Positions 16,601 through 64,000 of a DNA stretch of 64,000 nt are shown here, one piece after another. The DNA is from Cenococcum geophilum (taxonomy: Eukaryota): contig CP158635.1 in assembly GCA_050273025.1 (NCBI GenBank), positions 9,672,001 through 9,736,000 of the forward strand, in the 5' to 3' direction. The stretch's first letter is position 1, and every line of letters starts with the position of its first letter. Below the pieces are notes generated by a model. It was given only the letters and a program-made list of their open reading frames with translations. It was not told the DNA's origin and made no database searches. Made by a program: the position numbers and the translations under genes.

Positions 16601-16647
16601 TGACGGCAATTTGCCTTACATGGCGGCAATTTGCCCTATTCCCAACA
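10657..16647 (-). mobile_element. Full-length Ty1/copia LTR retrotransposon, copy 1 (RIP-inactivated)
   Basis: 201-bp LTRs at 10657-10857 and 16447-16647; TSD ATTTC. Minus-strand order gag, integrase, RT, RNase H. De-RIPed motifs: KSRLVIQGYND, RDITQAYTQ, KPLYG, FVDGSFANNKD, CTDSYSL, EKRLMID, NPADAMTK. Confidence 0.95.
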
Positions 16648-20184: not shown

Positions 20185-20464
20185 AGGTATAGCTAATATA
20201 TATTTTATAAGTATATTTATACTAATAGTATCACAAAACAATAAGCTCTATACTATAGCTATTAGTATAGATAAAATCTTAAAAGGTAAGTAAGTAACTA
20301 GTAAGATACTAAGTATAGCTATATAGAATAATATATATAAATAATATAACTCTATTACCTAATAATACCTCCCTTTTAATAATAACTATCTTTAGGTATA
20401 ATACCCTATTTCTTAGACTTAAAAGCGCAGATTAGACGAAGCTATTATTATAGTATATGCTAAC

Positions 20465-39775: not shown

Positions 39776-42587
39776 TGTTGGTCTTATAAGGTAATATCAC
39801 GTATCTACAGGTTGTAGGTAGTATGATAGTTATTATTCTTCTTGATAATTAAGGACGAAGGGCTTAAGGCTCTTCGCCACGCTAGTGTCGCGGCAACACG
39901 TGACGGCAACTTGCCTTACGTGGCGGCAATTTACCTTATTTTTAACACTAGCAACTCTTCTTTTGTAGTTGCCATCTATATACACTTATAGATTACTACT
40001 ATATAAAGATACAAAGTTAAGGAGAAGAAGAAGGGCGTTAGGGGTTAACGCGAAGACGAGTAGCCGCTAAGGCGCTAGTAGTAAGCGAGCTAATGGCGAT
40101 TTTCCATGCCGGGTATGGAAAATCCTAATTAGCTAGCTTAACAAATAGCATTGGCAGAACTCTACACCGCTACCTAAATTAATTAGGTATGGCGTTCTTG
40201 GTAAGAATTTAACTAATTAAACAACTTTAACTGGTGGTTAAAGTTCTATAAGATCTTAACTTCTTTAAGTTTCCCTCTTAACCTAACCTTTAACTTATAT
40301 ACGTAGAGTATTTATATCTATAAACGTCTCTAGTGCCTTATTTAGGCTTGCCTTTATTATTGCATCTACTAGGTTATTTTAGCTATTAATCTATTGGATT
40401 TTAAAGAGTTTTTGCCGTTTATAGGATTACTAAAGTGCCATAATATTAATTATAAGGCGCTTCTTTTTTATAGTACTAAGCTTAACTAAGCACTTATAAA
40501 GGGAATATAAATCGGTGTATATAATTATAGGGATAACGGGAAGTTTAAGTTAATCTATAATTATCTTTAGGGTAGTTCTAATTGTAATTGCTATATTAAC
40601 TCCGCTAACTATTTTATATATCTCTAACGCTAGAACGCTTTAAGTAATGCGCTTACTCTTAGTTAAGCTTTAGTGGATAAAATTGCCGTAAATTATAAAG
40701 TTATTCTCTCTAGTAGATTTGTTTATAATAATAATCTTATATCCTAGCTAGGAGCTAAAATCTTTATTATTTATAAATAATCTATTAATAAATACAAAGA
40801 GCTTAGCGGTAGGAAGATTAATAGGTACGTAAAGTAGTCCCCAATTAAGATGGTTTATTTACTAGGAAAGACGTTTATTTAGAGTAAGGACGTTGTCCTT
40901 AGTTAGTTTTTAGTGTTAGGTAGCAATAAAGAGATTAAATAAAGCCTTAGGTTAATAGATAGAAGTAATATACGCTTTATAAGCGTATTACTCCACATAT
41001 CCTTACTTTAGAGAATTAGCGTTAATAACGTTAATCTTCTTACCTTAGCCCTTCTGGCGTAAAGTAATAGAATCCTTATTTAGGGAGAGGATGTATCTAT
41101 TAAAAAGTAATAGTGTTATTAAATTAAGCTTTTCCTTTGGCTTTACTATAAGATTTACCTTTACTAGCTTATCTTCTTTAAGAGCTAAGAATTGGTTGTC
41201 TTTTAAGATAATTATATTATTGGTTTATATGCCGATGATTCTAAATAGGGCTTCTATAGTTGCGATAAGGAAGTATAGATTAAATATAGAAGTAGTTATT
41301 AAGAGCTTCTCTTTATAGTGCTTGCTATAGGTAGCCTACTAATAAGTTCCTACCTTTGTAATTCTATATAATAGCTTAAGTATAACCATAATTATATTTT
41401 TGGGATATTAGTAGCAAATTTGCTTTAGAAGGTATACTAGTATTAAGCGTTAAAGGTACGTCTCTAATTAGGTATAGGCCTAAGTAATATCTTATAAATA
41501 AACCGCCATTCCGTTCTTTATTAAGGAGGGAGCTAGTATAATAATAACTTGCTAACTAGCTTGTTAAATTATAGAAGATTATATAAGAATTACCTCCTTA
41601 CTATTATTATTATAGCCTTAGATAATAAGCCTTAATTTCTTAAATAGGGCGTTAGTAGCTTTACCCTTAATCTTATTAACTATTCTTAACTTAAAGACGC
41701 AAACTCCATTAAACTTAGTAAGGTTATACTTCTTAAATTTAAAGACTCCTCTTATAATAAGACTATCAATCTTCTGCTTATTAGATACTTAAAAAGGAGC
41801 TCTAAGGGTTATAATATAACCTTCCTTTTAGAGCTATTTTACGAGCTTAAAGTTAGCCTTCTCCTTAGCTGTTATAAAGGCCATTAATAACTCGACTCTA
41901 TTCTTAATAGCGGCAATAAATTACTCTTTAAAATTAATAAGATATTAGCGATTTTATAATCCTTTTAGGCGACCTTTACCGCGTTATAGTTGCGGAACCT
42001 CTACTATAATTATATTAGAATTATAGTCGCCTTCTAAAGCACGTTAATTATAGTTCTCCTTTAGGGTATCCTATAAAGGCTTAGAACTATTATCTTTATA
42101 GTAAGGCTTAATAATAGTTAAACGGAATTAAGTGGGTCTGTAAGGCATCTAAATAATATAAGTTTAACCGTTAATTATAATAAGTTAATATAGGCCTAAC
42201 TACCCTCCCTTTTTACGCTATACGCGTACCTTAAACTAGAGTGGTATATTAAGCGTAGTTAAGGTATTTAGGCTATTTCTTATTTCTAGTACATTATTAA
42301 CCTAGCGTATAGCGTAGAGATATTACACCTTCTTTATTGCCTTATAAATAGCCTTAGCTTATTACACAATAGAGGGAGATAGTGGAGAATCGTTAGTTAT
42401 TTAAGGGTAGGCACTAAAGGCTAGTAATATAGGTATAAGCCTATCTAGGCCAGCGGAATTATTAATAGCCTTAATAGCTATTTATAAGATAAGCTTTTTA
42501 CTAATACCTTCTAGTTCTAAAGAAATAATCTTATATGCGCGGCGTAATAGCGCGTAATATTATTCCACTTTTTTAATACTATTATAT
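39776..42587 (-). mobile_element. Ty1/copia copy 2, 3' half (3' LTR, RNase H, RT, end of integrase), cut by the giant element
   Basis: LTR 39776-39947. Internal sequence is collinear with copy 1 up to its position ~13533, then switches abruptly. Confidence 0.93.
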
Positions 42588-43099
42588 TATCGGCAAAATA
42601 TTGTGGGCTGCCAATGGTCTCGGTTACCGGTAATCGGCGCAGTTGGCGCGCAGTTTAGGTCATTTGGCAACTCGACCAACCTGCCTATGTTGTGTTTTTT
42701 TTGACAGGTAAACTGCGCGCAAACTGCGCGTAAACTGCGCATTTGGTAACCATAATTGTATTTAGAGCCATCTACCTCTTTTGTACTAATAGTATAGTTT
42801 AAATAATAAATAAAGGTTACTTTAAAGCTGTTTATAAGGCTGCTAAGGCAAATTGTATATATTTCTTTATATAATCTATTATATTATTTTAGACAATTTA
42901 ATACAATATCCCAAATATCTTATAATATATTCTAAAAGCATAAGACCTTTCCTGCTCTCCCTGCAACAATAATATACTATAAGTGTTTGGCTTTGCTAGT
43001 ATAGCATATACATATAACCAAAAATTAGCTACTAAGAGTAGTAGGTATAGGCTAAAAGAAAGGTAAATTAAAAGCTAGTATATACAATAAAAAAGCCGC

Positions 43100-46000
43100 A
43101 GTTATCCTGTAGGAGAGTATGGAAAGTCCTATACCTAATTTTTTACTAAAAACTCCACTAGCTCCTCTTTACTAGAGTCTAGAGTATACGCTATAAACCT
43201 TATATACTGCTCCTTATTCTTAATTAAATTTGATATTACTTTCCCATTATTATACTAGCTATAGCTGTCCTCTGCAAGGCCGTAGTACTGCTTAAATTAT
43301 GCAAATGACTTATTAGATTTAAACCTTTTTGGCCTAGGCTTACTGGTTCCTGTATTTAGGACAAAGTGGTATACTAGGGCAGAGGATGTATATTCTGCTA
43401 AATCTAACAAACTTAGCTAGTTCCAAAGGTTGAATTAGCAGATATTATAGTAGTAGTAGGGCCCTAGATTTTCTAGCTTACTCTAGAGCTCTCCCTTTAA
43501 GACAGACTTGGTGGACTGGTTTGGCCTACTCTAGAGCTCTCCATTTGGGATAGACTTAGTAGGCTAGTCTAACTTGCTTTAGAGCTCTCCCTTTAAGATA
43601 GACTTGGTAGACTAAATGGTATAGTCCGGCTCACTGATAAATAGCCCGAGTTAATAACTGCGTTAGTTTTGTTATTGCTAAGGCTTGCGAGGAATCTCTC
43701 TCTTGTGTTATTACTTAGATCCGCTATAAGGTTGTTAAGGTTATCTTTATATAGGTCTTTAATAATTTCTATAGTATCCGGTTAACCCGTTAGGCCTATA
43801 GCATATTTAATAACTGCGGGCTAAAGCCGCAACTAGATTCTAAATTGGCGTTTTTTAGATATCTGGTTCTAGCCGCCTAAGAGGTTAGTATAGGCTTCTA
43901 TGACGGGTTAGAGAATAAAACTAGGTAGTAAAATACTAGATATATATAGACCGCTAACGGTAAAGCTATAAAAGTTATCTATTACCCTAGTACTAGTTCT
44001 ATACTCCCTAATTGTATAATATATTGCTGTTAAAATAAAAGTAATAGTGTTGCTAGTAAGCTTTTTAAATATATTATAAGAGGAGGGTATTCAGGTAAGG
44101 CCGTTCTTTCCTTTACTGTAAAATATATTAGCTATATTAGCAACTATTGCGTTAGAACGGAACCGGTTATCGCTTAGCTATTAGCTCTTATTAGTATTTT
44201 TTACTAAATAGCACGGGTAAAATACCTTTGTGTAATCCAGCGTAACAAAATTATAATTAGTTAGTAGTTCTACAATCAGTTTAGGCGCGTTGTTAAACCC
44301 TAGCCTATATACCTCCCTTATAACTATATAAGCCTTTAAAATTACGTAGTTCTTAAAGTTCCCTATTATATTAAATAGCTATAGATAATATTAAGATTGT
44401 TAGTAAATAATTTAATATAATATTAATATAATATTCTTAGTGTATAGATACCTTGCGAGCGGATACTAGGTTAGGAATATAATTAGCCTTTTTTTATACT
44501 GCTTTTAGCTGCTTTATAATGGCTTCTAGCTATGCCTTTTTTATTATACCCTTAACTAGGCCTAGAAAGCGGTTGAACTATGGGTTAATAAGATGCCCTT
44601 TATAAGTACTAGAGTTGGTTACTAGCCTTACTACTAAAATAGACCTATAAAGCGCAAATATGGGCTTATATCTCTTAGGTGGGTTTTCTTTTATATATCG
44701 CCGTTATAATATCTAGAGGTACTCTTCTCTTGCCTATAGCGCGGTAGTTAGGTTAAAATCGTTTCTATAGTCCGACTCGTCCTTACTTTCCCTAGTGCTA
44801 TTTAAGTCCCCTTTAGATCAAACACTAGGTTAGTATACTCTGTGTTAGAGGGAGGTTACTTATTTTGTGGACGAAGCTATATTAGAGTTTAGGCGGACAT
44901 GGCTTACTAGGATAAATATATTACTAAACATTAGTTCTTTATGCGATAAGGTACGCGCGGGAGAGTATTTTAAACTAGCACGCAATTATTTACGCGGTAA
45001 GGTACGGATTAGGCGTATAGGAGAGTATTTTAAACTAGTACGCAATTATTAAGAGCCGGAGGTATATTGCGAAGATGCTGCTTTTTATAGCGGTGGATGG
45101 TTAGATAATAAAGATAGTATTAGGGCCTACCGAGTGCTAAATAGTAGAGGAGACTATTAAGTATTATAGTTAGACTCCAGTTATATATAAAGGTATAACC
45201 TACCTTAACTAAAAGATTAGGACTTCGCGTTCTTAACTAAGCTAGTTCTACTGCCAGATTATTAACAAATTTAGTAGATTTATTAATATTTGGTTGCTGT
45301 CGTTTCGTAGAAGAAGTAGGTATAGACTCATAGTCACTATCCTTATTATTAGATATTACCCTTTTTGGCCGGAGGCGGCTATGTACATTCTATATATTAT
45401 TAGCTAGCTTAATCTATTATATATAACGTTAATAGGGTTTATTATATACCTGCTCCTTTTTACGCCCGGATATAACTAGACTAGAGTTATAATATTGCTT
45501 ATTCTCGCTGGGTTCTATATACTTATTCTCCGCTAGCGCGTTCTTCCTTTTATTAGCTAGGATATGGGCAACTCCTAGTAGTAGGCTAGGTAGAGACGTA
45601 AAGTTAATTATACTAGTTGTCCTCGTTTCCTTATTCTATATTGACTTAAAGTAGGGTTCTTACTACTAGTTTAAGTGTTTAATAATGCGTTTTTATGTTT
45701 ACCTGCCATGGTAACGCTCTTATATTTGCCTAGTTAGTAGAAGGTATAGCCTATAGCTAGAATAGGTTATTTTATAGCTGTTTCTGTGATGTTTAGGGCG
45801 TATATAGATTAATAACTTAAAAGAACGTATACTGGTATGGTATATATTAAACTAATAGCAGTATTAGTAGGAGTGTTACTGCTATAGTGCTTGCAAATAA
45901 CTTAAATAGGGGTGTATTTGTTGTGATTAGCTGCTAGTTCTAACTGATTGCGGTTAAGCTGTGACCGCGACCTATTAACTTGTGTTAAGTTAGTAGTTAA

Positions 46001-47900
46001 AACATTATTGTATATTCTAAGATTGTTAAATATAATTTGCTATTATATGCGAAACTATTTTATTCTATTAGCATATCCCTTAGTAGATATAGTATGGGTG
46101 TATAAAAGGTTAAACGTTAATCCTGGTAATAAAAGTAGTAGGCTAGTAAGACTTATGTCCGAATTTAATAGGGAGGTACCTTATTAAACCATTTTACCTA
46201 CCTAGGGCGCTGGCTTTTAGATCCTATATCTTATTCCAATCCACCTATATTAGGTTTAATAGCCGTCTTATACTTAAAGTGAAGCTTATCCACCTTATCC
46301 GTGCAGCTTATTAGTGTAGATAATGCTAGGGTAGGTATAGGCAGTATATAGGATAGTAATAACACTTCTATATAGTTATATCGCCATATTCTACACCCTT
46401 ATATAATACCTAGTATTTCTACCGTAAATATCTAATGTTATTCTTCCGCGTTATTAACCCCGCTAGCCTATAATAAGCCTAACCTATTATAATAGCAATT
46501 AAATTTAGCAGAATGGTAAGGAAAGCGCAAGCATAGATATAAGGATTGGGTGTTAGATACTAAGAGTGAGCCGGGGACGGTGTTAATATATATTACCCTA
46601 ATAAGTTTACTAAAAAGAACGGGTATAAACCTTAGGCTTTATTGTCTAATCCCCTCAGGCGTTTTAAGAATGCTAGATAAGTTATAAGAATATCTTAGGT
46701 TATATTGTTCTAAGACTCCCTCGCTTAATAGCATACTAAGGGGCTCTATTAAGCCGTCTACCTTTATATATGGTGATCTATTAAACTAGTAAGTATTCTA
46801 GATAAAGTAGTGGCTTTAAGGTGTATAATCTATGCTGCGGTTATAGTTGCCTTTACCTTTTCTGTTGCGGGTTAAGGCGTAGAGTAAGGGCTCTTTTTTG
46901 ACTAGGAGAGGTTTTTTAGGATAGCTATAGGTTGAGTATCGCCTTAGTATTAACCCGTTTACCAGTTTTATCTATTTTTGTACGTGTAGAGTGCGAGTTA
47001 TCTAGTAAAGGTAAGGGTGCGGAAATAGAGGGTAAGTAATTATATCGTTCTTGGCTGGTAGCGCAGACTATAAATATAAGTTAGTGACACTGGCTTAACT
47101 TTAAGTAGTAACCTACTTATTCTTCTTTATTCTATTATAAATAAAAACCTATTTATTTTTTATAAAAATATATCCTTAACCGTACTACGCTATTTCTCTT
47201 TGTTTATAAGCTGAATTCGTCCTCTAGCTATCTTATTACTAACGTAGTAGTAAAGCGTTTTACTCTTAGGGTTAAAGTTAATATTCTGGCCTAGTATGTC
47301 TATAAATGTATTAAAGCTTAGATTATTAACGTGTATATTTAGAGCGTTATTCTTACTAGTCGCTAGCTTTTGGGTTAGGATAATTATTGGCTCTTTGTTA
47401 GCTGCCTACCGGATTAGTATTATTATTGTTCTATATAACTTTAGTGTTCCCTCCTACCTTATTGCCTTTAGTATGCCAGCTAGTGGATAATACGTAATGG
47501 CGGAGTGTGGGAGTACTGGGTTGCCTGTTGTAATTTGCCTAGTAGGAGCCGTTTTGTTTGTTTAACGCGTCGCGTTATAGCTATAGTACTAGGTAAGCTG
47601 TTTAATATATTTAGTATATAGGTTCTTAGGTAAACCTAGAAACACGGATAGGAATTCGTTGGAGATTTTGTTTAATATTTGCCGTATTTGTACCTTGCTT
47701 ATAAGGGAGCGTAGTGGCTATTTAAGGAGCCCGCGCGTTAACATTTTAATTTTAATATTATAGTAGATCGTATTATATTATTTATTCGTAAGCCCTAGAT
47801 CTTACTTAAGAGTATCTTTAGTGTTATAGCTTAGGTCTATTATTAGTGCTATAATTCTAGAAGCGTTAGGGGAGGTGTGGTAGGAAAGACGTCTTAATTA
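43100..47900 (-). pseudogene. Large multi-exon gene relic (possibly two genes) with a DUF6532-like domain at ~43700-44600
   Basis: Spliced minus-strand translation gives KA*LEA..FKNYVILKAYIVIREVYRL..ELLTNYNF..NRFRSNAIV..IFYSKG..TITFILTAIYYTIREYRTS..AYTNLLGG*. This resembles the DUF6532 pattern (IALVxTAIxxAIxEWxTG) as I recall it. Three GT..AG introns in the domain. Boundaries approximate. Confidence 0.55.
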
Positions 47901-48159
47901 CGCGCTAAGACTAATATATAAAATTGTATAGATAGGTATATTGTTTAGTTATTATATAAAACAATCAGTTAAATGTCTTATAAGAAATAAATAAGCGTAT
48001 TAGCGAATGCTTCTTCACCCGCTATACTACCTAGACTTATAAGCCTTCTCCTATCCCTTTTACGTCTCCGTCTATGAGCTCGATTTAGCACCCGGATTTA
48101 TTAATACTTTTTTTTTATATATTTTTTATATATTTATTATATTATACTATGTATAATAA

Positions 48160-49480
48160 TGCGTATATAGCCTCTAGGCTATAGTGCTATAGTTTTATAT
48201 ATATAAATCCTTTCTAGGCAGCTTAATATATACTAGTAACTATATTTACTAATACTTTAAGACGCCTAGTTAGCCCATAACTGGTAGAGCCTGGTTAGTA
48301 TAATTAGAGGTCCCGACCTCTACTAAAATACTTAATACCCCTAATAAGGGCTAGAATATTATCAGCGAAAACAGAGATATTCTACTATAAGTTAATAAGA
48401 TCTTAGGTCTATATAGCTTAATAAAGGAGTATCTAAGCTCTTAATATAATCTTTTAAGAAAAAACATGATTAAACCGTTAAAAGAGGTAGTAGGTTAAAT
48501 TAGAGTAGACCCTTTTTAGTTTACCGGAATCTAGATATGGTAATAGAGTCGGTATATATAAATAGGTAAGTATGCTATAATTCTAAAGCAGTCATCCCCT
48601 AATATCTATAAGGTCCATACTAGCTTAGTAATATTTTTACCTTAAGGGCTAGTAATCTGCGTGGCGTTCTTACTTAGGAAAGTAGGGAAGATAATCTGTT
48701 GGGATTAGTTAAAAAGACTAGTCGCTAGGTCTCTAGTTGCTTTAACTCCCAAGACTACTAATTTTTAAATAAAATATATACTTATAATAGTGGCGGTGAG
48801 ACTATTGGCCGCATTAGAACAGAATCCCCTAAAGGTTAACTTATTCTTTAAGACCTAAAGATATTAAAATTAACTCATCCGTATTATAGATAATGGTTAA
48901 GGAATGAACTAGATTTTATAAAGTTAGTTGCTATACTATGTTAGCATTATAAAAGCTAATAAGAGAGCTGTAAGTATATGATGTTTTCTAAATAAGAAGA
49001 TATCTAACCATTAATAGATTCCCGTTATTAGAATACCTTATTTAAGTTTAATAGAATGTTAAAGCACTATAATATGTTATAAATAAGCCTTATACGGATC
49101 TTAGTTTAATTGTAGCTATTAAGGATACTTCTTTATTTGAGAATGTTTATATTTTTAAAGACTAGTTAGATATAACTACTATAGGGCTTAATAAATCTTA
49201 AGCTACTATACTGAAACGAGTTCTTATAAAGCGTCTTGTAATAATCTAAAGACCTCTAGGCACTAGAAAAACGTGGCTTTAAAGGCGTTGCTTAGCAATA
49301 TAACAATGGGAGATCCCCCTATTATTGTTATATGTTATATAAACTATACGCTAAACTAGTTATTTAGGTATATTGCTTAAAGTAATATATACTTTATAAA
49401 TTTTCCTAGTACTTTTAACCGTCTTAATACTATCGCTTATATAGATAGACGATATTATACTGCATTAGGCGCCGTGGCCG
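48160..49480 (+). pseudogene. RIP-mutated intron-containing gene of unknown function
   Basis: Continuous frame broken only by RIP-type stops; GTAAGT donors at ~48566 and ~48970 with branch and AG acceptors. Confidence 0.45.
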
Positions 49481-49544
49481 TGTGAGTAAAAAGAAGAGGA
49501 AGCGTTAGGGCTCCCTCTTTTTATATTTTATATTTTATATTTTT

Positions 49545-52500
49545 ATATTATCTTATATTGTCCTATTATTGTCCTACTATTATGTTATATTGTCCTATAT
49601 TATCCCATATTGTCCTGCCATTATATTATATTGTCCTGCCATTATGTTACATTATTCTGCTATTGTGTCACATTGTCCTGCCATTATATTACATTGTCCT
49701 ACTATTATATCACATTATTCTACCATTGTGTTATATTGTCCTATTATTGCCCTACCATTATGTTATATTGTCCTGCTATTATCCTACCATTGTCCTGCTA
49801 TTGTGTTATATTATCCTATCATTATCCTATTATTGTGTTATATTGTCCTATTATTGTCCTACTATTGGTTATACAAGGGGGATATCACGTAGCTACGGTT
49901 CGTAGATAGTATGATAATTATTATTGTTTATATATTCTTCTAAGAAAGGGGAAGGGTAAGGAACTTAAGGTTCCTTACCACGCTAGTGCCGCGGCAACAC
50001 GTGACGGCAACTTGCCTCACGTGACGGCAAATTGCCGCATATGGCGGCAATTTGCCCTATTCCCAACACTAGCAACTCTTTTTTTTATAATTGCCATCTA
50101 TAAACACCTATAGATTGCTACTATACAAAAGTATAAAGCTAAGGGGAAGAAGGAAAAGAGGAAGGGTATTAGGGGGTTAACGCGAAGACAGGTGGGCCGC
50201 CGAGACGCTAGTAGTAAGCGAGCCAATGGCAATTTTCCATACCGGGTATAGAAAATCCTAATTAGCTAGATTAACAAATGGCGTTGGCAGAACTCCATAC
50301 CGCCACCTGAATTAATTAGGCGCGGCGCTCTTAGCAAGAATCTAACTAATTAGACAACTTTAACCGGCGGTTAAAGTTCTATAAGATCTTAACTTCTTTA
50401 AATTTCCCTCTTAACCTAACCTTTAACTCATATATATAGAGTATTTATATTAACAAATGTCTCTAGTACCTTATTTAGGTTTACCTTTATTATCGCATCT
50501 ACTAGGTTATCTTAGCTATTAATCTATTAAATCTTAAAGAGTTCTTAACGCTTATAGGATTACTAAAGTGCTATAATATTAATTATAAGACGCTTCTCCT
50601 TTATAGTGCTAAGCTTAACTAAATACTTATAAAGGGAGTATAAGTTGGTGTATATAATTATAGGAATAGCAGGAATTTTAAGTCAATCCGTAATTATCTT
50701 AAGGGTAGTTCCAATTGCAATTACTATATTAACTCCGCTAACTATTCCGTATATCTCTAACGCTAGAATACTTTAAGTAACGCGTTTACTCTTAGTTGAG
50801 CTCTAATAGATAAGGTTGCCGTAAATTATAAAGTTATTCTCTCTAGTAGATTTGTTTATAATAATAATCTTATATCCTAACTAGGAGCTAAAATCTTTGT
50901 TATTAGTAAACAATCTATTAACAAATATAAAGATCTTAGTAGTGGGGAGATTAATAGGTATATAGAGTAGCCCTTAATTAAGATAATTTATCTACTAAAA
51001 AAGGCGCTTATTTAGAGCAAGAACGTCATCCTTAGTTAGTTCCTAGTATTAGGCAGCAATAGAGAGATTAAAGGAAGCCTTAGGTTAACAGATAGAAGCA
51101 ATATAAGCCCTATAAACACGTTATTCCACATATCCTTATTTTAGAGAATTAACATTAACAACGTTAATCTTCTTGCCTTAACCCTTCTGGCGTAAAGCAA
51201 TAGAGTCCTTATTTATAGAAAGGATACATCTATTAAAGAGCAATGGTATTGTTAAATTAAGTCTTTCCTTTAGCTTTGCTATAAGATTTACCTTTACTAG
51301 CTTATCTTCTTTAAGAGTTAAGAATTGGTCGTCTCCTAAGATAATTATATTATTAGTTTATATGCCGACGATTCCGAATAGAGTTCTTATAGTTATAATA
51401 AGGAAGCAGGGATTAAATATAGAAGTAGTTATCAAAAGCTTCTCTTTATAGTGCTTACTATAAGTAGCCCACTAATAAGTTCCTGCCTCTGTAATTCCAT
51501 ATAATGGCTTAAGGACAACCATAATTATATCTTTAGGATATTGGTAGCGAATTTGCTCTAGAAGATATGTAAGTATTAAGCGCTAGAGGCACGTCTCTAA
51601 TTGGGTATAGGCCTAAGTAATATCTCGCAAATAAACTGCCATTCCGTTCTTTATTAAGGAGGGAGCTAGTGCAATAATGACTCGCTAACTAGCTCGTTAA
51701 ATTATAGGAGATTGCATAAGGATTGTCTCCTTACCATTATTATTGTAACCTTAGATAATAAGCCTTAATTTCTTAAATAGGGCGTTAGTAGCCTTACCCT
51801 TAATCTTATTGACCATTCTTAACTTAAAGATATGAATTCCATTGAACTTAGTAGGGTTATACTTCTCGAATTTAAAAACTCCTCTTATAATAAGACCGTC
51901 GATCTCCCGCTTATTGGATGCTTGGAAGGGGGCTTCTAGAGTTATAATACGACCTTCCTTTTAGAGCTGTTTTGCGAGCTCGAAGTTAGCCTTCTCTTTA
52001 GCTGTTATAAAGGCTATCGATAGCTTAGCTCTACTCTTAATAGCGGCAATAAATTACTCTTCGAAATTGATAAGATGTTAGCGATTTCGTAATCCCTTCG
52101 GGCGGCCTCTACCGCGTCGTAGTTGCAGTATATCTACTACAATTGTATTAGGATTGTAGTCGCCTTCTAGGGCACGCTGATCGTGGTTCTTCTCTAGGGC
52201 ATCTTCTGGGGTATCTTCTAGGGTATCTTCTAGGGTATCCTATAGAGGCTTAGAACTGTTATCTTTATAGTAGGGCCTAATAACGGTTAAACGGAATTAA
52301 GTAGGTCTATAGGGCATCTAAAGAGTATAAGTTTGACTATTAATTATAATAAGTTTATATGGGCCTGACTATCCTCCCTTTTCACGCCATACCCGTACTT
52401 TAGATTGGAGTGGCAGATTAAGTGTAGTTAAGGTGTTTAGGCCATTTCTTATTCCTAGTACGTTATTAACCTAGCGCGTAGCATATAGACATTATACCTC

Positions 52501-55500
52501 CTTTATTGCTTTATAAATAGCCTTAGCTTATTACACAATAGAGGGAGATAGTAAAGAATTGTTAGTTATTTAAGGGTAGGCGCCAAAGACTAGTAACGTG
52601 GGTACGAGCCTATCTGGGCTAGCGGAATTATTAACGGCCTTAATAGCCATCTGTAAGATAATTTCTTCGCTAGCATCCTCTAGTTCTAAAGAAATAATCT
52701 TATATACTCGGCGTAATGGCGTATAGTATTGCTCTACTTTTCTAATACTGTTATATGCCTTAATAGGGACTTCCTTAACCTTAATTGCCATTGCTTTTAC
52801 CTGTTGTTGAAACTCTATAGATAAGAAGTTCTTTCCTATATTATAAATGATTCGATTAGGGGGTCCTAGGTAGATATTAATCTAATATAACTAAAGGGTA
52901 TCCTATGCGTTTCTAGCTAATATATCCCTTAAGAAACGTACGGCTTAGAAGGAGGTTAATAAGTTAATAGCTTAGAGGACTAGCTTGCCGTTAAGATATA
53001 TAACATTAATAATAATATAGAAGTTAAAGTTATAGTTATCTTTAAGGGTAAACTTAAATCGGCCAGGGGACTTTTAGTTTATTTAGCAGTAATAGCAATA
53101 CTTCGTAAGATGCTTAATTGCCTTAACCTTAACTTTATAACCTACTCGTTAAAGAACCCTAAGTAGTTGGTAAATAGATAGGTAGCTAAAATAACGGTGT
53201 AGTTAACGTAGCTCTAACTTAGTTAAATAACTCTAAGCAACGCTCCTTTCTAGTTATTAGAGGAGTAACCAAGGGTAACCCTACTTGCGTACAACGGGCA
53301 CCCAATTATCTCCCTAAATAAGCATATTCTTAAGGTTATTAAGCTTAACACCTAATTTATTTATATCTTAAATACAGAATAGGAACGGGGTGTTCGCGGG
53401 AATAATGTGGAAGGTAATATATCCTAATAGGGTTTAGACCTTAATTGTGCCGAAAGAGATTATAGTACCCTTACCAAAGTAAATTGTATATTGGCCTGCC
53501 GTTAATTAGTTAATTTAAATAGAGCTATTAAGCTGCTAAAGAGCTCAAACTTAAGGTTCTTCTACTATAGATACTCCTACGGCTCTAGTATCTAGTATAA
53601 TACTATAGAAGACGTTCGCCGAGTATCTATCATTAAAGGAAAACGCGGAACTTTCCTTTAGCTTATTAAAGATATCTAACTTTATAACAGAATAGAACAT
53701 AAATTGGTTATTAAGGATAGCAATAGTTTATGTGCCATTTACCTTACTATACTTAGTAAAGTATTGGTTGGGAGAGTAGTCCTTAATATCTATATCCATA
53801 AGGAGCTGTTCGGCCTTATTAACCTTATCCTTAAGGTCTTCTATGCCTTTATATTAAACTAGAAAGCTTTAGAAGTAAGCTATAGTAACCTTATAATTTC
53901 TGATGTTTTTTACACTCTGTTAGAACTTATTATATGCCTCCTTTTACTCGTTAAGAGAGTGTTTATTTAACTAGCAATTTAGCTTTTTATAAATATAGCA
54001 CTTCTTCTAATAGTTATTCCGAAATAAACCTCTATAAGGACCTCCATAATTACTTTATAGTTAACGTTAATTATACCCTCTACCGTATCCCCTACTCCGG
54101 CCACCATATATTCGATTAGTCCAGTTATAATTATATTAGTCTAGAATCCCGGTTTAAATAGGGTTTTTAGTATAGAATTGTTAGGGTTCTTATATTTATA
54201 TTATAGTGCCTATAATAAAGCGTAGTTTAGTATATACTCCTTTAAATATATCTATAGGTTTATATAGCGCCAAGTTATACTTAGGAACGCTATGGCATAC
54301 TAAGATAACCTAGTCCCTTAGACTGTTCTTATTTTAGTAGGTTTTAGTAAAACCACGTTAGATTTTCTAGAGTTTATTAAAGAGTAGTTAAAGACACTCT
54401 AGGTAAGTTGTTATTAGGTTAGAAGCAATAACTCTCTAAAATATAGTCTCCCGCTATTCGGATATATAGAGTTAGCAGTTCTTATCAGTTTTAAAGTGGG
54501 CTCTAATAAGCTAAAGCATTATATTAAAGCTATAGTTTTTACCTATAATATAGTCGTAATAGAACGTTACCGCCCGTCCCTTTAATATAATAGAGAAAGT
54601 ATAATAAAACTAATAGCGTTAAATTTTAATCTTATTACAGCAGTTATAAAAGACCTATAGTTTTACTCCAAGTATATTATATAATTCTTCTCCAAACTTC
54701 TTCTCTTTGTCTAAATATACCTTTATTAAATTTATAACTTCTTAAAATAAAGGCTTATTAGTTAGCTGGGATAGAGGAATTAGAGGTAATAGAGGTAGAG
54801 GAAGAGCACCTCTAGGTAGGAGAGTACCTTTAGGTAGGAGAGTAGCGTTCTAGGGGTTTTATTCTAAATTAAAGTTGCCTTCCAAAGAATATAGGTTGGT
54901 TTTAGGTTTCCGTAGTTAATATATAATCTTAGCTTCCGTCCATACTAGTTCTTCTATACTAGTAAAAACGGCGTAAATATTACTAGCAATTAGGTTACTA
55001 TCCTCAGTAATATACACCCTATTTCTTTAGAGGGAGTCTCAAAAATCCTAAATAATATTAATATTACCAAGTGCCTAGGTGTCGGCGGTCCATCCTACAA
55101 AATCCTCCCTAAAGTATTCCTATAACTATAAATCGGCGTAGTAGCTATCTTAGTAGAATAGAATATAGTGTAGGAGAAAGCCGTTAACTTGTTTTACGGT
55201 ATAGGTTATTATATTAAAGGTAAATGCGTCCTAATCTTTATTAATAAGTTTTGCGTATATAGCTACCCTTAGTGGTAAGGAGTCTCTCTAGTTATTTAAA
55301 GTAGCCATAGTTATATCTTTAGAGGAAGGGAATATTAGTAGTATAGGGATTGTTATTTAGTACGCGTTTATAACGTGTATTTATAATTATAGGGCTTAAG
55401 ACTAGTTCTAGCCTTAAATCGCGAAAACTTATAAAGCGTGTTATTCTGCGTAATAGACGCAAGAATCTGTAATCTAGGGAAGGCTTAGGACTAGTTCTAG

Positions 55501-55932
55501 CCTTTAAATCCTTAGATTTATAGAAGAGTTCTATTTAAGGTTTAGGACCAGTTCTAACCTTAAAAGACAGCTTCCCTTAGCACGAGTAGCACTAGTATAG
55601 TAGCTCGTCTCTTCTTAGTAAATACCTAGCTGTTCTATGGCATAACTGTAAAGTTAACCACTAATTAGTGTTGGTTACACAAGGGGGATATTACGTAGCT
55701 ACGGTTCGTAGATAGTATGATAATTGTTATTGTTTATATATTCTTCTAAGAAAGGGGAAGGGTAAGGAACTTAAGGTTCCTTACCACGCTAGTGCCGCGG
55801 CGACACGTGACGGCAACTTGCCTCACGTGACGGCAAATTGCCGCATATAGCGGCAATTTGCCCTATTCCTAACACCTACTATTGTATTATATTGTCCTAT
55901 TATTGTTTTATATTGTCCTACTATTGTCTTAG
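49545..55932 (+). repeat. 11/21-bp minisatellite (attgtcctact / attgtgttatattgtcctgcc) split by copia copy 3
   Basis: Array at 49545-49862 resumes at 55875-55932. Confidence 0.9.
49863..55874 (-). mobile_element. Full-length Ty1/copia copy 3 (RIP-inactivated)
   Basis: 206-bp LTRs at 49863-50068 and 55669-55874; TSD CCTAC; internal region collinear with copy 1. Confidence 0.95.
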
Positions 55933-56978
55933 TACTACTATATACTTTTTGCTATTTACCAAGATTATAGTTATGGGTATTTGTTGGCTAGGATCCGGGC
56001 AGTAACTCTTAGTAGTAATTTTACTACCTAAATCTCTTATAGATTAATCGATTGGCGTAGAGCCGTTATATTATAGTAAAGCCATATCTAAGCAATCTAT
56101 ATCATGATCCTTGGCATAGTATTGTATATAGAAATATTTAATTATAAGATTTAGGAAGGTGTTTATATTTTAATTAAATTCATAAAACTATAACTAAGGG
56201 CCTTTACGATGTAGTGGCATAGTAAGTTCTACAATCGCTTTAGTTTAGGGTTGCTTAGTTACTGTAGGAAAGTCGTAATGCTTGGCGTGGTGTTAAACTT
56301 AAGGTACCTTGCCACTGCAGTGGTAGAGATATAGTAGATTAACTACTCACTAAAATATAGCGCCCCCGTTGCTGTAGTAGCCACTATAGTAACAGAGATA
56401 CCCTATATTTATAAATTTAGATTCTATATATAGTATAGCTTGCGAATTTAACGCGCTTGCCAATTTAGAGAAGCTTTTAAATTAGAAAGTCGCCAGATTG
56501 ACCGAATAATCGCGTTAGAATTAGATTTAAGCTTTAGCTCGGATATATTCTGGGGCCTTTAAATTCAATCTAAAGTTGCAACCAAACGTTCCCTAAGATT
56601 TGATGTAGGGATCTCTCCCTAAGGATCTGGTTTGATCGTAAGGTTTAGAAAGGGGTTATAATTTAGTTAAATTTATAAGATTACATTCCAAAGTCCTTAT
56701 GGCGTAGTGGTATAGTACGTTCTGCCTCTTACTATAATTTAGAGCTAGCCTAACGTGATTAAAACTTAATGTGGAAGAGCCAATATGCTTAGTATATAGT
56801 GCTGAGATTTTGTTAAATGTATAACTTTAGGTATTATAGGACACGTACAAAAATATAAGCTTAATTTAGAGCCTTACTAACACCTAATTTAATAGGAAAC
56901 GACCTTCTTTTTTAATATTTTTAATATATAACAAGTGGGAATTAAACCCGCCACGCCTAGGAGTTAAATACGCAACGT

Positions 56979-58083
56979 CTAATTGCCCAATCTAGCTAGG
57001 AGGCTTAGCGGCGATATAATAGGGCTTAATAATATAATAAGGCTCGACGGTAATGTAATAAAACTTAGTAATATAATAAGATTTAACGATATAATAAGGC
57101 TTGGTAACGTAATAAGGCTCGGCGATATAATAAGACTTAATAATATAATAAGGCTCGGCAACGTAATAAGGCTTAGTGATGTAATAAGGCTTAGCGGCAA
57201 TATAATAAAACTTAATGATGTAATAAGTCTTAGCGACGTAATAAGGCTTAGGGCCGGGCAATAAGGGGAAGATTTAAGGTTGCTCGGTTACTAATGCCTA
57301 ATAGCGAAATCCAACGGTATAGTACTACTATTAAGGTATTTTAATGCGGGTAGGTTATATAAAGGTTTCGTCTATAATATATCTAATATATCCCAAAAGT
57401 CTGCCTTTTGCTTATCTTTAAGGTCAAATTTCTGGCCTATAATGAATTAAATGTTGTAGTTGGTAAGAGCACGATAAATAATAGTATATTGTGCCCTATT
57501 ATTCTTAGAACCGTTAAATATAAAGTAGTAGGTAGTCTATTAACTTATGTCTGTTAATACCGGCTAATAAAGTGCCTTTAAAACGTACTAATATTAATAA
57601 TAGCCCTTTTATTTTATAGTATAATAAGCTTAATAGTAATGGGGTTTTGGTCCTTATAATTAAGTATATTTGTCTAGCAGAGCTAGGTTTACCAATTATT
57701 CCAGTTAGTATTATGTTATAGGTTAATTCAATATCTTACACTAATGGAAAAAGGTAGGAGGTAGATTAAATAGAATAATTAGGGTATACTTTTCTTTACT
57801 ATTAGGGATTTCGTATAGACGTTGTATAGTATGCAGGTAGGAGCTGGTAGTTATTAAGATATTATAGGCAGTAGTAAAAGTTTTACACAAGATAGTAAGA
57901 TCTTAAAAACTACTACTAACGGTTTCCCCTTATAGCAGACAACTACGTATATACGCTGTAACTATGCAATCGGCAGACGAAAGCGGTAGTTGTAAATATT
58001 AGTTTGTCTGTTTTAATGCCGTCTTACTTTTTATAATAATTTGAGATATAGAGGGAGCTTTAGTTATAGGATGATCCTCTTAT
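56979..58083 (-). pseudogene. Unknown gene relic whose C-terminus is a hexapeptide repeat, de-RIPed (SLITSP)n
   Basis: Frame ..KFDLKDKQKADFWDILDIL..LKSSPYCPALSLITSL.. runs through the 18-bp array at ~56995-57250 to the stop at 56979. Start approximate. Confidence 0.5.
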
Positions 58084-58415
58084 ATACTAATTAGGCTTTT
58101 AGAATAATAAAGATGGTATATATATATAGTCTATTAATAAAGAGGATATACCTTAATAGGAATTGTTAATATATATTAGGAATAAGAGTTGGTAGGGTTA
58201 TAGGCTGGATTACTTAATAGGTGTTGAGGTAGTTAGTAGCCGGAGTAATATTAATTTGGATAAAATTTAAACTTTTTAAGGTTTAGTTAGTTATAAGGTG
58301 GTTAATACTAAGATAATATATTATAAAATATTAAATAGTTGCATATTGTCTATATATATATATATTATACTAAGATATACTCTTATTATAGGGATTGCTA
58401 CTTTAACTGCACTAG

Positions 58416-61400
58416 CTACGCTATTTCTATTACATTATTATTAGCCTGCTAAGTAGGTTAGGCTTTAAATACTTTATAGAACTTATTAATTATTATCCTT
58501 TTAGTTATTGTATGCCTTGCTAATATAACCATATTAATTGGGTTTCACTTATCCGTACTATACGTTGTTAATATAGTGACTACTAGCGCTGGCTATTTAG
58601 ATCTAGCAGCTTGGCTAAATACTTATACCTCTATATTTACTATTATCACCGGTTTAAGTAGATGGACTCTATGCATAGAGACTAAATTTAAACCCTCTTC
58701 TTTAACTCTTTGGTTGATAATAAGAAACTAGACTATGTTATTCTGGTAAGAACCGCCTATTAGAATATAAAACGCTTTGTAGATATCCTCTTAGTCTTTT
58801 AGGGATGTCTTAGACTCTATTTAGTAAATAGTTAAATATTTAGACTGGCTGAGCCTTTTATAGAAATACTATATTATATTATTAGTAACAGTTTACTACT
58901 AGTCTAATAGCTAACTTATAAGGCGTAATAGTGTATATGCCGCTGGTTTGTAACTGCTAAACAGTAGTCTCTTATTAGGATTCCTTTTGAGTACTTTATT
59001 AACGTATTTTATAATTCTATTTAGTTTCCTGGAGTTAGCAATTATACTCTAATTCTTCTAAAGTAGATTTTTATCTAAAGGTTTATTTTATTTTTTGCTA
59101 CGGAACTCATTAACTGTCTACCTTGGCTTTGTTCTAACTTTTGTCTTATCCTTCTACCACGTATTCTACTACTTATCTCCTACCTTAGCTAGGCCTAGAA
59201 AGATAGTAAAAATTTTTAATAAGCGACTAGCTCCCTCTAGAAATTGATCTATATTAAAGATAGGTTCTTCTCTTTTTTTTTCTTTAGCTTTCTAGTGTTT
59301 AAAAGCTTTATTTAGCTGTTTGAAAGCTTTTAGGGATGCTCTACGCCAGAGCTTCTTAATGTACGGTTTAAATATTGAATTGTTTGTTATATAGCAGTCT
59401 TGGTAGACGACCAGTGGTAGCTTATTAATTACCCTCCTATTAAACCATTGGTCTTCCCCTATCCTGCGTATAATTAAGACCTTTGTAATTAAAGAGGAGT
59501 ATTTTTTAAAGCCCGTAATAACCTTGTTTGGAAGAGAAGAGTAATTAGCTACTCCTAGCTTTTTATATTTAATTAACGCTTTAACATTGTAATTATTAAT
59601 TAATTTTGTATTTGGGGAATCTGTCTAATTAGGGGCCCTGAAAATTTTTAAGGCGGGAATTAGACTTGTAAAACCTTTGCTGGTTGGTATACCGGAAGTA
59701 AACACTACTAAAGGTTGAGAGGTGTAGTAGGTTATTTTACCATTGCCGTCCTTATAAGACTGGCCTGGGCGTTAAAAGTGAGGAAATACTGCTTAATTAT
59801 TGTATACTTGTTTGGTGATTTTTATTAGATAACCTGTCTTTAACCTATCTGTATAGAACTTATTGGTAAAAATCCCACTAATGATATAATAAGGACTACC
59901 GTCTCTATAGAGATTGAGAATGGTTTTATGCTGTTTCTAAGTGGTCTAGGTTGTTGCCTAAGTTTATAAGGTCGTAATTATAAGATATAAAGCCGATCTT
60001 AGGTTTATTTTTTACTAGACTACTTTGCCTTCTTCTTTATATTTTATAGGTTTAAGAATGTCCCTATCTTTATCTGTGAAATTATACTTCTTTATGCTGG
60101 ACCTAATAAAAGCTGTATAGCGTACGCGGACTTGTAGTTTACCTCTAGGAATAAAATTATTTAGTTCTGAGGTCTTAAACTATAATTTAACATCTTTAAC
60201 TGCTTAGGGTAGTAGATTCTGTCTAGTAATGTATATAGTTGGTCCTACTGGCTAGTTAAGAAATTTTCTAGTAATACTTCCCTTAATATAACAGCACTGT
60301 GGTATGCTATCTATTTAACTTGGGTATCGGGTGTTAGGCGGCTGTAGGTGTTTATCCGTACTGGGGGTAAGGTAGAGACTTTTATCTCTACCTTTTTAAT
60401 TTTTCTAATTAAGCTAGTTAAGGTTAATCTTAGTTATTAACACGCTGGTGTACCAGATTAAAAGCATTTAAAGTATCTTGCTTAAACCTATTATATCCGT
60501 AAAAAAGGTCCCATCTAGGGTTATATAATTAAGAAGAGTATAGGTAATACTAAGCAGCTAATATGTCTATATAGCTTTACCCTTTTTTATGCCGTATAAG
60601 TGGAAGGTTGCGTCTTAAAGAGTGTTGTGAATAGTTAACGGAAACGAGAGGAACTGTAGCGCCTTTACCTATAATATTAGGTTAATGTGTGCTTCTTGTA
60701 CGTCCTTTAGGTGATTAACTTTCTAATTAACCTCCTTAATTTTATTCTTATACTCGTCTTCTGGTTCCTTGTTAGTCGAAATAGGGTTAATTAAGGCGTT
60801 AAAGTGGCGGCGCTCCTATATACGGTTAAGATTAATTTTCCTAATATAAATTAGGTTAGGGTTATTATTTATATTCTTAAATAATATATTAATAAACATT
60901 TTGTAATTAGACTTTAGCTATTTATTATACTATCCTTTTATTTTATCCTATAGTATTATCTTAAATATTTACACTTTATCTAGATCTATGTCTTTTAAGA
61001 GCTCTAATTTATTTAGTAGGGGCTAGTCTTTACTACTACGGGTCTAGCTATAAGTAGTTTTAATTATAGCCGGCCGTACGGCTGATAATATATTAGTAGG
61101 TATAGGTAGCGTGGACTTTGGGGTTAATATAGGCTTTGGATTTAACTATTTAGGTATAGGTGGCGTGGACTTTAGGGTTGACTATTTGTAACTACTTTAA
61201 TCTAGGGCAGGTATATCTGTTCTTCTTCTAGTTGGCACTGGTTGTGTAATATTAGGGTTAGAGTTAGACTTGGAATTACCCTTATTAAATCTTGTGCCTG
61301 TAAATGTATATTAGATAACTTTATATAATATTATATAATCTTATAAATTGTAAAGTCTCTTACGCTTTGTAATTTGATTGGGATCTTTAACTCTAATTAT

Positions 61401-62189
61401 AATTGTATTAAGTCCGGCCTTCTTTGCAGAAAGCACTGTAAATGCTAGGTTTATATAGTTGAGAATTGGTATACTAGTGGTTAGATCTACTATGGTCTAG
61501 CTATCCCTGTATTTATCCGCTAAGAAGTTTTTACTTATTGCGGCCTGCAGCTTATTATATCCACAGTAATATATATTAATTTTCTCTGGAGAATCGGATA
61601 ATAGATGCTTATGCTTAGTTTTTAATGCGAATCCGTATGGAATGGGGGCCCTAGTGAATGGCGTTTTGTCTAGGTAACTGTATATAGCAAAGCTTATTTT
61701 ATAGAATGGTGTAGGTGTGGTATTTGGCTATTATAGGGCTTTAATAGACAGATTACTGAGTACCTAGGTAGCCTTGGAGGTTGCCTTTGATTTAGATAAG
61801 GCGCTACGCTTTTAAATAGTATTAGCTATTATAACCTCCACGCCTTTATATCTGTTGGTCGTTATATATTACTATATAGATTTTTTAGCGGCGATAGTAA
61901 AAGCCTTAAACTTTGATGGTAGATCGGATCTCTTAAACACGTGCCTATACTTGGTATTAAGAAGGTTAAAGACTATACGCTTAACTCCATTTTGTATAGG
62001 TTTGGACGTTAGTAACCTACCGCTAGACACTTTATTGATTTTGCTAGCATAGTATTAGAGGATTTTGCTGTATGTTTTTTTGTTAATTATAAGTCCTTGC
62101 TATAGCTTTGGACCACTTATTTATAATAAGTTCTTATTAGTTATAGTGGTTAAGTACTAACTAGATTTTGGATATAGCGCCGCTATTAT
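58416..62189 (-). pseudogene. SNF2-family (SF2) helicase/ATPase, ~1200 aa, RIP-inactivated
   Basis: One frame with ordered motifs: I DGTFFTDIIGLSKIL (GG.AD.MGLGKT, ~60470-60515); II IFTNKFY (ADEFH, ~59855); III FTSGIP (SGTP, ~59695); IIRRIGEDQWFN..LP; SRKL; then, after an intron, V EGLNL and VI EV*VFSQAARSK* (Q..GR..R.GQ). Confidence 0.85.
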
Positions 62190-62659
62190 AGTTAGGGACC
62201 CTATATATTTATAAGCGGGTAAAAGCTTAATATAGAATAGTATGGAGTGACTTATAAAAACAGTGGAGTGGATAATGTATTAGATAATTAGTAATAATCT
62301 AATAAGATAATCCTAATAGTTATAATAAGATAATCCTAATAGTTATAATAAGAAGGTGTACTGATAGTGTTAACTTAAGATAATAGCGGATACTAACGAG
62401 AGTAATTTAAGAGTAATGTGAGAAATAGAACGGAATGTAAGTCTTAATATGAGAAGTAGGATAAGATATAAGCTTTAATATAGGTAGTAGAACGAAATAT
62501 AAGACTTAGAGTAAGAAACGGAACGAAAGGTATATGGCAAGATAAGATATAAGATTTATGCTGCTGACTAAGTGAATGATAATAAGAGAGCTGATAATTC
62601 TATTCTTTATATTGTAACTAGTTAGTAAAGTAGCTTTGGAAAGGTAGGGAAATAAGTTT

Positions 62660-62982
62660 AGGATAATTTAAGATATTAAAAAATGTCTAAGATTGTACGA
62701 AAAAGTGAAATATAATATAGCATTTTATTCTATAAGTGTAAGGTAAGGTAAAATATATAGTAGAGAGAGTTAGGGGGATAATTTAAGACATTATAAAAGG
62801 TCTAAGATTGTACAAAAAAAAGTGAAATATAATATGGTATTTTATCCTATAAGCGCAAGATAAGGTAAAGTGTATGGTAGAGAGAGGTAGGGGGATGATT
62901 TAAGATATTATAAAAAGTCTAAGATTATACGAAACAAAGTGAAATATAATATGGTATTTTATCCTATAAGCGTAAGATAAGG
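62660..62982 (+). repeat. Tandem repeat of a ~118-bp unit, ~2.7 copies
   Basis: ggataatttaagatatt..tctaagattgtacga..gtgaaatataatat..ataagcg..ataagg recurs at ~62660, 62775 and 62893. Confidence 0.9.
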
Positions 62983-63159
62983 CTTTAGGATACCCTTTCA
63001 CCTAAAGTATAACCTATTTTTAAGCTATGTTACTAATAAAGCAACTTTTTTTTAGGTAAGCTGTTACGTCTACTATATAAGCAACCTAAAACTAGTATCC
63101 TAGATCCTACTTATAGCTACTACGCCTTATATTAAAGATATTTGCTAGACTTATTTACA

Positions 63160-64000
63160 TATAGGTCCTGTAGTCCGAATTGTATGTTAAGCTATCTATA
63201 ATATAGCTATTGTTACTCTAGCCCTATAACACCGTACTCTTATTTATGCGCCTTTTTCTTCTATTTTCTGCTATTGTCCGCTTAATCTTTTAAACTTCTA
63301 TAGCCGCCTAAACTAATACTGTAGCCTCTTTATCTTTAAAAATACAATTATATTAAGCTTGGCTTAGCCTTAATTTCTCTTTAAAAACACGGCTATATTA
63401 AGCTTGCCTTGGCCTTAATTTCTCTAAATATATACTGCCTAGAAATATATCCCACCTTATATAACTACTATAAGCTCTACCTATAATATGGCGTCTAGTG
63501 CCCTAGCGCGGAGTAGGCTCTTTTAAAAGCCGTATTATAATGCCTTCTAGAGACTAGACACCTAAAGCTTCTTTAGCTGCTGTAAATGAGGGAGATGCTA
63601 ATATATAGATTGACGGTGGCATACTAGGTAGAGATGGCCCTAATCTTTATAAGTTGGGGTGGGATGTTAAGGTTAAGCTGGCTGATTTATAGACTAACCT
63701 AAATAACGCGTTCTTTTCTGCTAAATTATTTAAAGAGCTCTAACTGTATTTTAGCTCTCTGTACCCTGGTAGTGTGTGGGCTTATACTAATATGTTTATT
63801 TAATAGGAAACCGGAGGTGTTAAAAGGAATTCTAGAAATAAACTTTTGAAAGCCGTTAAAGATAAGTAGTTAGCCTGTAAGATATAGGCTTTCTATTTAG
63901 TTACTTCGCGGGCTTTAAATTATCTATATTGTTGCTGATACTTGTTATCTGGCCTAACCCTCTGGCGTTACCCTAATAATAAATGTAAGACTTCCGGGCG
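63160..64000 (-). pseudogene. 3' part of another RIP-mutated gene of unknown function, running off the window
   Basis: Frame ASPSFTAAKEALGV*SLEGIIIRLLKEPTPR*GTRRHIIGRAYSSY..KIKRTIAENRRKRR with only RIP-type stops. Confidence 0.4.

Follow-up and report, generated by a model that had tools for sequence, protein, structure and literature searches.

In the ascomycete Parastagonospora nodorum SN15, the repeat X3X3R8 is described as a multi-copy sequence mutated by repeat-induced point mutation (RIP) that holds Rad5/SNF2-like helicases, Rad6 and uncharacterised open reading frames (ORFs), with at least nine copies broken into short pseudo-ORFs (Hane and Oliver, 2010; PMC3017866). In the red alga Bostrychia moritziana, giant Plavaka elements of the EnSpm/CACTA lineage, which have tandem inverted repeats, measure 17.4-19.1 kb and carry three accessory chromatin-type genes, are reported to dominate the genome (bioRxiv 10.1101/2025.02.11.637652). 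Here we describe a locus in Cenococcum geophilum that resembles both, positions 42588-64000 of a 64,000-nucleotide stretch of contig CP158635.1 (GenBank assembly GCA_050273025.1, positions 9,672,001 to 9,736,000 of the forward strand; hereafter the window, numbered from its first letter). Apart from a copia retroelement nested within it, this locus belongs to one long, RIP-diverged repeat present in many copies, and we read it as the left 15.4 kb of a dead copy of a multi-gene repeat that is probably a giant cut-and-paste DNA transposon, a reading to which we assign a probability of roughly 55%.

Starships are likewise large, cargo-carrying elements of Pezizomycotina and are low in copy number, whereas the repeat described here is about 100-fold abundant and yielded no captain in a search that is a weak test on such mutated DNA. 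Classification of Starships centres on the captain, a tyrosine recombinase (PMC12134995), and none of the Starship papers listed by our literature search mentions SNF2. Fungal DNA transposons with a helicase gene are known in AcademH and KolobokH, in which a superfamily-2 helicase (DEAD/Helicase_C) lies beside the transposase (PMC10799480); these resemble our locus in carrying a helicase-type gene but are described as low-copy, and the accessible part of their description does not state the helicase to be SNF2-type. TET/JBP genes have been captured by fungal DNA transposons of many lineages (PMC12730594), and DUF6532 is co-enriched with KDZ, Plavaka and CxC2 in some Ganoderma genomes (PMC8955403), the only mention of DUF6532 that the literature searched returned.

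Compared by its published description, as far as accessible, X3X3R8 is like our locus an ascomycete, RIP-mutated, multi-copy and multi-gene repeat with SNF2-like helicase genes. It differs in its published content of three helicases plus a ubiquitin-conjugating enzyme of Rad6 type, neither of which was found in the window, in having no DUF6532 or ZNFX1 domain reported in that part of the description, and in its nine annotated copies as against about 100 copy-equivalents here. The giant Plavaka elements, again as described in the accessible part of the preprint, match the locus in length class, high copy number, chromatin-type accessory genes, internal tandem or inverted repeats and mostly degenerate copies. 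Their accessory genes, however, are of methylase/SET and ParB-2OG types rather than SNF2, DUF6532 and ZNFX1-like, SNF2 is named in that part of the preprint only among host transcription-factor families, and no Plavaka DDE transposase (PF18759) was detected in the window. No description of Plavaka elements in Dothideomycetes was found in the literature searched. The original prediction for this DNA, made from its letters alone, proposed an undescribed giant fungal transposon; given X3X3R8 (PMC3017866) and giant Plavaka with accessory genes (bioRxiv 10.1101/2025.02.11.637652), both in print and here known from parts of those sources, the word undescribed is doubtful.

Abundance and unity of the repeat

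Among the 24 public sequencing runs listed for 42588-49871, part of the sequence is present in 20 (from nine studies), and three contain half or more of the words sampled from it. We placed contigs of four public runs on 42001-62000 at a likeness of at least 80% and summed their depth in 30 bins. All 30 bins were covered in all four runs by contigs 80-99% identical to the window, and summed depth was flat over 42668-48003 and 56008-62000, with a coefficient of variation of 0.10-0.20. The ratio of depth right of the nested copia to depth left of it was 1.01, 0.98, 0.83 and 0.90 in the four runs, while the ratio of copia depth to element depth was 30.9, 26.9, 2.5 and 5.6 in the same order. Because the two sides remain equally abundant while the copia ratio swings between runs, we conclude that 42668-62000, apart from the nested copia, belongs to one long unit with many RIP-diverged copies, for which equal abundance is shown over at least 13 kb; the bins bracket the left end of this unit only to between 42588 and about 43025.

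Differences between contigs were of the type that RIP leaves. In run X1, most listed variant sites were spanned by 9-35 distinct contigs (1-5 at three low-depth sites, 44437-45132), and 2,941 of 3,088 variable places (95%) were transitions. The multi-copy unit that had earlier been argued from RIP is thus borne out directly, with contigs of all four runs piling up on the locus, and the same pile-up together with the excess of transitions excludes a single-copy region subject to RIP leakage, which had been named beforehand as the finding that would overturn the prediction. Family abundance is of the order of 100 copy-equivalents per genome.

The junction with a copia retroelement

Self-BLAST identified three copies of a copia-type long terminal repeat (LTR) retroelement in the window, two full (10657-16655 and 49873-55882) and one truncated (39776-42587, minus strand), which runs from its 3' LTR to mid-integrase and forms the flank where the element begins. 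The truncated copy is 81-83% identical to both full copies, and its homology to both ends exactly at 42587. Aligned with both intact copies, the truncated one loses homology after ...CTATTATAT, where the intact copies go on with GCCTTAACAGGGACTTCC, the continuation that the original prediction had named for the rest of the copia. Gene order read by eye on a full copy is gag-protease-integrase-RT on the minus strand, which places the break within the integrase core, with the 5' half of the copia missing. The predicted cut in a copia integrase at this very base is therefore confirmed by both self-BLAST and alignment. By self-BLAST, the remaining copia half is absent from the next 21 kb (42588-64000).

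The nested copia (49863-55874, minus strand, 6,012 bp) is a genuine later insertion into a minisatellite and no part of the element. Its LTRs are 97% identical over 205 bp by self-BLAST, its flanks read directly give a 5-bp target duplication, CCTAC (49858-49862 and 55875-55879), and 11/21-bp units of the minisatellite are present on either side of it. Because the nested copia carries this target duplication, the two halves of the element were once contiguous. The copy at 10657-16655 has a target duplication of its own, ATTTC. With the nested copia removed, 42588-64000 amounts to 15,396 bp, in keeping with the earlier count of over 15 kb of unrelated sequence beyond the junction.

Each copia LTR also contains a 20-bp tandem repeat, CACGTGACGGCAAATTGCCG, in two to three copies (49998-50056 and 55804-55842 in the nested copy), forming a small GC island largely spared by RIP. 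We rejected naming the family after one from Leptosphaeria maculans, as the copia here is 6,012 bp long and its LTRs about 205 bp, compared to 6,981 bp and 281-bp LTRs for RLC_Pholy (PMC3105345, Table 4).

A GC-rich island at the candidate left end

The DNA around the junction is heavily mutated. In 500-bp windows across 39-64 kb, RIP indices are 1.3-2.0 for TpA/ApT and 0.3-0.7 for (CpA+TpG)/(ApC+GpT), with a few small islands as exceptions. Immediately beyond the junction lies such an exception, a GC-rich terminal island (42588-42760) of which 171 bp (42590-42760) have 49% GC and, at 1.11 and 1.17, RIP indices resembling those of normal DNA (0.90 and 1.13 in the genic start of the window), whereas the flanks stand at 0.3-0.7. 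The uniformly heavy RIP that had been claimed thus holds across 39-64 kb but not at this terminus, which is free of RIP mutation.

The fold of the island is a long, imperfect hairpin of -38.3 kcal/mol (z -4.2, with none of 200 shuffles equalling it), and it holds an inverted repeat of 21 nt at 95% complementarity. Five of the six matches to AACTGCGC in the window fall within the island, two in one orientation and three in the opposite, and these five make up the hairpin; 0.72 matches would be expected over the entire window. The motif cluster and the hairpin are beyond chance, and the structured GC-rich terminus described from the letters is real. The island may be the element's left end, with the motifs as subterminal repeats, or else a small foldback repeat in its own right.

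Contigs from runs X5 (one), X6 (five) and X10 (one) match the island up to 42677 and then diverge, with GACTAGCCT in place of the AACCTGCCT of the window, so that the hairpin loop varies between copies or strains. A search of metagenomes with the purine/pyrimidine pattern of the hairpin gave no hits.

Gene relics of the repeat

RIP has destroyed every reading frame of the element. We ran Pfam on 12 read-through frames, with stops read as X, reporting matches at E ≤ 0.1. This yielded DUF6532 and ZNFX1 above their curated cutoffs and one sub-threshold match, LbR_Ice_bind (E = 0.008 and 16.7 bits, below the cutoff of 30), which fell on translated minisatellite and was dropped as noise. As a control we scanned the copia, which is equally RIP-mutated, and recovered no match in any of its six frames or two tiles at E ≤ 10. 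Because the same scan is blind to copia, Pfam absences on this DNA are uninformative, and all those given below are to be read in that light.

The largest relic is that of a minus-strand SNF2-family ATPase gene some 1,500 codons long (57322-62100, ends approximate). Its main frame, 58341-61940, runs for 1,200 codons with no frame change and contains 68 stops, while the two alternative frames contain 111 and 160. Searched exhaustively by HMMER, this frame (stops as X) matched 51 proteins at E ≤ 0.001, all 51 of them short ORF fragments of 41-161 residues that tile residues 1-1180 in the same frame. Identity to the relic was mostly 54-85%, with two fragments (P0049 and P0050) at 33-36% and one at 48%, and the eight fragments that we looked up lie on metagenome contigs of 575-1,104 bp (seven from ENA and one from JGI/IMG). 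These fragments are short stretches left open in other mutated copies.

The family of the gene was recovered by way of these other copies. A profile built from 58341-59078 and nine fragments matched the C-lobe of FUN30 best among Protein Data Bank (PDB) entries (E = 0.0026), followed by a Sulfolobus SNF2/Rad54 helicase (E = 0.031 and 0.084) and ATRX (E = 0.66); four of the five PDB matches at E ≤ 10 belong to the SNF2 family, and the alignment passes through motifs IV-VI. The motifs of the C-terminal helicase lobe (AGG.GLNL and Q...R..R.GQ) are thus recovered via the profile and not from the window sequence alone, which by phmmer had no hits in the PDB. Two motifs of the relic could be placed, a Walker-A-like GLSKIL (60488-60471) and a motif-V-like EEGLNL (58700-58683). 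For the former, fragment P0002 reads LADIIGLGKI against FTDIIGLSKIL in the window, which by eye is a Walker A site with RIP-type changes.

Other searches of this relic returned little. Pfam matched nothing in 55883-64000, SNF2-rel_dom included, and none of the 51 fragments exceeded a curated Pfam cutoff, the best relevant match being P0040 to Helicase_C (E = 0.058). A profile of the upstream region as far as Walker A (A5) had only chance-level matches in the PDB, a word-indexed homologue search with P0049 at longer lengths gave no hits, and when all fragments were aligned to the long frame with MAFFT, many were misplaced, so these alignments were not used as evidence. Taken together, we accept a relic of an SNF2-family ATPase gene on the minus strand, as originally predicted, on the resemblance of its copies to SNF2 C-lobes; the N-lobe appears in part.

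Two near-identical, RIP-free metagenome contigs of 46% GC (L001, 1-1830, and L002, 1-2425) contain an SNF2-like pseudogene, truncated and broken in frame, that is related to the relic in the window. It is adjoined on the opposite strand by a CDC48-like gene (CDC48_N, E = 3.2e-9; CDC48_2, E = 4.2e-4), and the only part of the window that the contigs match, at protein level, is 58917-59498.

The DUF6532 gene that had been suspected was recovered as a minus-strand relic at 43572-45422, in the frame with fewest stops, whose domain (about 43965-44366) matches PF20149 at E = 1.2e-7 and 32.2 bits against a cutoff of 24, over profile positions 55-177 of 194; a word-indexed homologue search at near lengths gave no hits for it. 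On the plus strand, 48610-48855 retains the N-terminal domain of ZNFX1/Upf1-like helicases (PF25396, E = 1.5e-7 and 31.8 bits, above the cutoff of 27, positions 11-89 of 107), and Pfam found no AAA_11/AAA_12 helicase core downstream of it. A further relic, or relics, at 45890-47891 on the minus strand belongs to no family by Pfam at E ≤ 10. It was recognised by low stop density and a protein-like reading in three successive frames, that is with two frame changes; its stretch 46093-46992 shares its frame with four metagenome ORF fragments that are 67-84% identical to it, and its profile (A6) had only chance-level matches in the PDB. Finally, 63350-64000 on the minus strand is possibly the C-terminal end of a gene starting beyond the window, judged by eye from the low stop density of one frame, and matches no Pfam family at E ≤ 10. 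Of the five gene relics originally listed, three therefore have the support of a tool and a fourth that of same-frame fragments, while the fifth was seen by eye only.

Tandem Repeats Finder placed arrays between the relics, as the prediction of tandem-repeat spacers had it. A 48-bp unit in three copies (43472-43614, score 174) lies just past the 3' end of the DUF6532 relic, and an 18-bp minisatellite of 12.9 copies (57011-57251) just past that of the SNF2 relic. The left part of the internal minisatellite with 11/21-bp units spans 49543-49862 and resumes beyond the nested copia at 55880-55931. Upstream of the SNF2 relic are three arrays of 23-, 31- and 117-bp units (62282-62982), the last with 88% matches and a score of 493, and a 45-bp array lies at 63329-63425.

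Nature of the element

We favour a transposon for the abundance and continuity of the repeat, the sharp copia junction with its cluster of AACTGCGC motifs, the lack of an LTR-like direct repeat, the gene content, and the precedents of giant Plavaka elements and of fungal DNA transposons with captured TET/JBP genes. An LTR retrotransposon was rejected, the only direct repeats in 42588-64000 being copia LTRs and tandem arrays, although an element longer than 15.4 kb would escape this test. A transposase encoded beyond 64000, which by analogy would be Plavaka/CMC-like, or within an unrecognised relic would have bound the repeated motifs at the element end and placed the element into the copia integrase. 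The family would then have amplified and been silenced by RIP, with the second copia landing later in the minisatellite, and the chromatin- and RNA-helicase-type cargo may have acted against host silencing.

Several observations weigh against such a transposon. Neither a transposase, a recombinase nor a Rep was found by Pfam in the 12 frames, Plavaka/EnSpm DDE transposases (PF18759 and Transposase_21/23/24) included, and eight proteins (four window tiles and four fragments) matched nothing at E ≤ 10. Only one end lies in the window, with neither a target duplication nor the missing copia half, which leaves insertion unproven; the window holds no second copy of the terminus and no terminal inverted repeat partner for it. 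A RIP-free island of 171 bp is an odd end for a unit of 100 copies and would suit an independent short foldback repeat. Plavaka termini are described as 5'-CA..TG-3' (TGT..ACA in PlavakaA and CATCA..TGATG in PlavakaB), with target duplications of 2-5 bp, or of 2-3 bp with TGT..ACA or CATCA..TGATG ends (PMC12730594, as far as accessible); the left end here reads TATCGG, and CATCG is obtained only under an assumed C-to-T change. The SNF2 frame had no intact full-length relative by HMMER among 1.84 billion representative proteins. Lastly, the estimate of roughly 110-560 copy-equivalents was obtained as the ratio of summed depth to the median for single contigs listed, and since summed contig depth is no copy number, only the order of magnitude (about 100) is taken from it.

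These weaknesses give room to other explanations. Position 42587 could be a deletion or rearrangement breakpoint, with 42588-42760 a separate miniature inverted-repeat transposable element (MITE)-like foldback too short for RIP and the true end of the long repeat elsewhere, at or left of about 43025. The island is the only RIP-free stretch at the junction, other small GC islands exist in the AT-rich block, the island is itself repeated (in five distinct X6 contigs sharing it up to 42677 and then divergent), and the following 21 kb do not contain the missing part of the copia. However, the island begins exactly where copia homology ends, so that a second event at the same base is the less economical account, and the bin starting at 42668 is already at element-level depth; we consider a breakpoint somewhat unlikely. 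A mosaic is another explanation, in which unrelated repeat families, at least two, are equally abundant by chance. AT-rich RIP blocks are typically nested mosaics (PMC3105345, in its accessible part), and none of the contigs listed spans the whole stretch, but a right-to-left depth ratio of 0.83-1.01 in four runs while the copia ratio shifts twelve-fold, together with the resumption of the minisatellite beyond the nested copia, makes such a mosaic very unlikely.

The cellular look of the genes (SNF2, ZNFX1-like and DUF6532) suggests in turn an amplified host gene cluster, a segmental duplication that lacks its own mobility enzyme and was spread by ectopic recombination or by neighbouring elements. 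No transposase is among the Pfam matches, and X3X3R8 was itself published as an 'endogenous gene cluster' (PMC3017866). About 100 copy-equivalents in each of four runs is nevertheless far above usual segmental duplication, and the unit has a terminal motif cluster and a sharp edge within a copia; we regard this origin as unlikely. Least probable of the alternatives is a Starship, or a Helitron with captured host genes. Multi-gene cargo and a hairpin near one end would suit either, and the mobility gene could sit beyond 64000. Against a Starship, which the original prediction had listed among its candidates, stand the approximately 100 copy-equivalents and the lack of a DUF3435 match; against a Helitron, the copia target is T|G rather than A|T, the end reads TATCGG / ...CCGATA where TC or the CTRR complement would be expected, and no Helitron_like_N, Rep or PIF1 match appeared, the domain searches being weak tests in both cases.

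Returning to the transposon that we favour, we put forward tentatively, as a possibility less likely than not, that it represents a recurrent and so far unpublished Pezizomycotina lineage of giant (15-24 kb or more) Plavaka/CMC-like transposons whose own gene set, of chromatin and RNA-silencing type (SNF2, ZNFX1/Upf1-like and DUF6532), is anti-silencing cargo, amplified to about 100 copies and killed by RIP. If a transposase and both ends were confirmed in full copies, ascomycetes would have hosted very large, high-copy DNA transposons. Their chromatin-remodeller and RNA-helicase cargo would be a fungal counterpart of the accessory genes of red-algal Plavaka and of basidiomycete transposons carrying TET/JBP, the interpretation of 'endogenous gene cluster' repeats such as X3X3R8 would be reopened, and transposon-borne counter-silencing genes could be pitted against RIP in a testable case. 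With the present copy dead and partial, its value is that of a lead rather than a mechanism.

Other features of the window

The window is GC-normal up to about 4.5 kb and forms an AT-rich block from there to 64 kb, with 28-47% GC per kb, mostly 30-38%. The copia family in this block has been mutated by RIP past Pfam detection of its reverse transcriptase (RT), integrase and protease, which calls for caution in domain-based transposon annotation of this genome. Searches of 39-64 kb found no tRNA and no Rfam family, and a crude pattern test found no telomere arrays and no RT YxDD pattern. Inside the AT-rich block are two RIP-free, GC-rich tandem-repeat blocks (18201-18750 and 33751-34450) that are 76-82% identical to each other and show internal register shifts of about 120 bp. 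The block also contains an inverted pair, 19630-20186 and 29770-30335, of 568 bp at 88.7% identity with about 9.6 kb between its arms, which represents either another element's long inverted termini or a pair of oppositely oriented copies.

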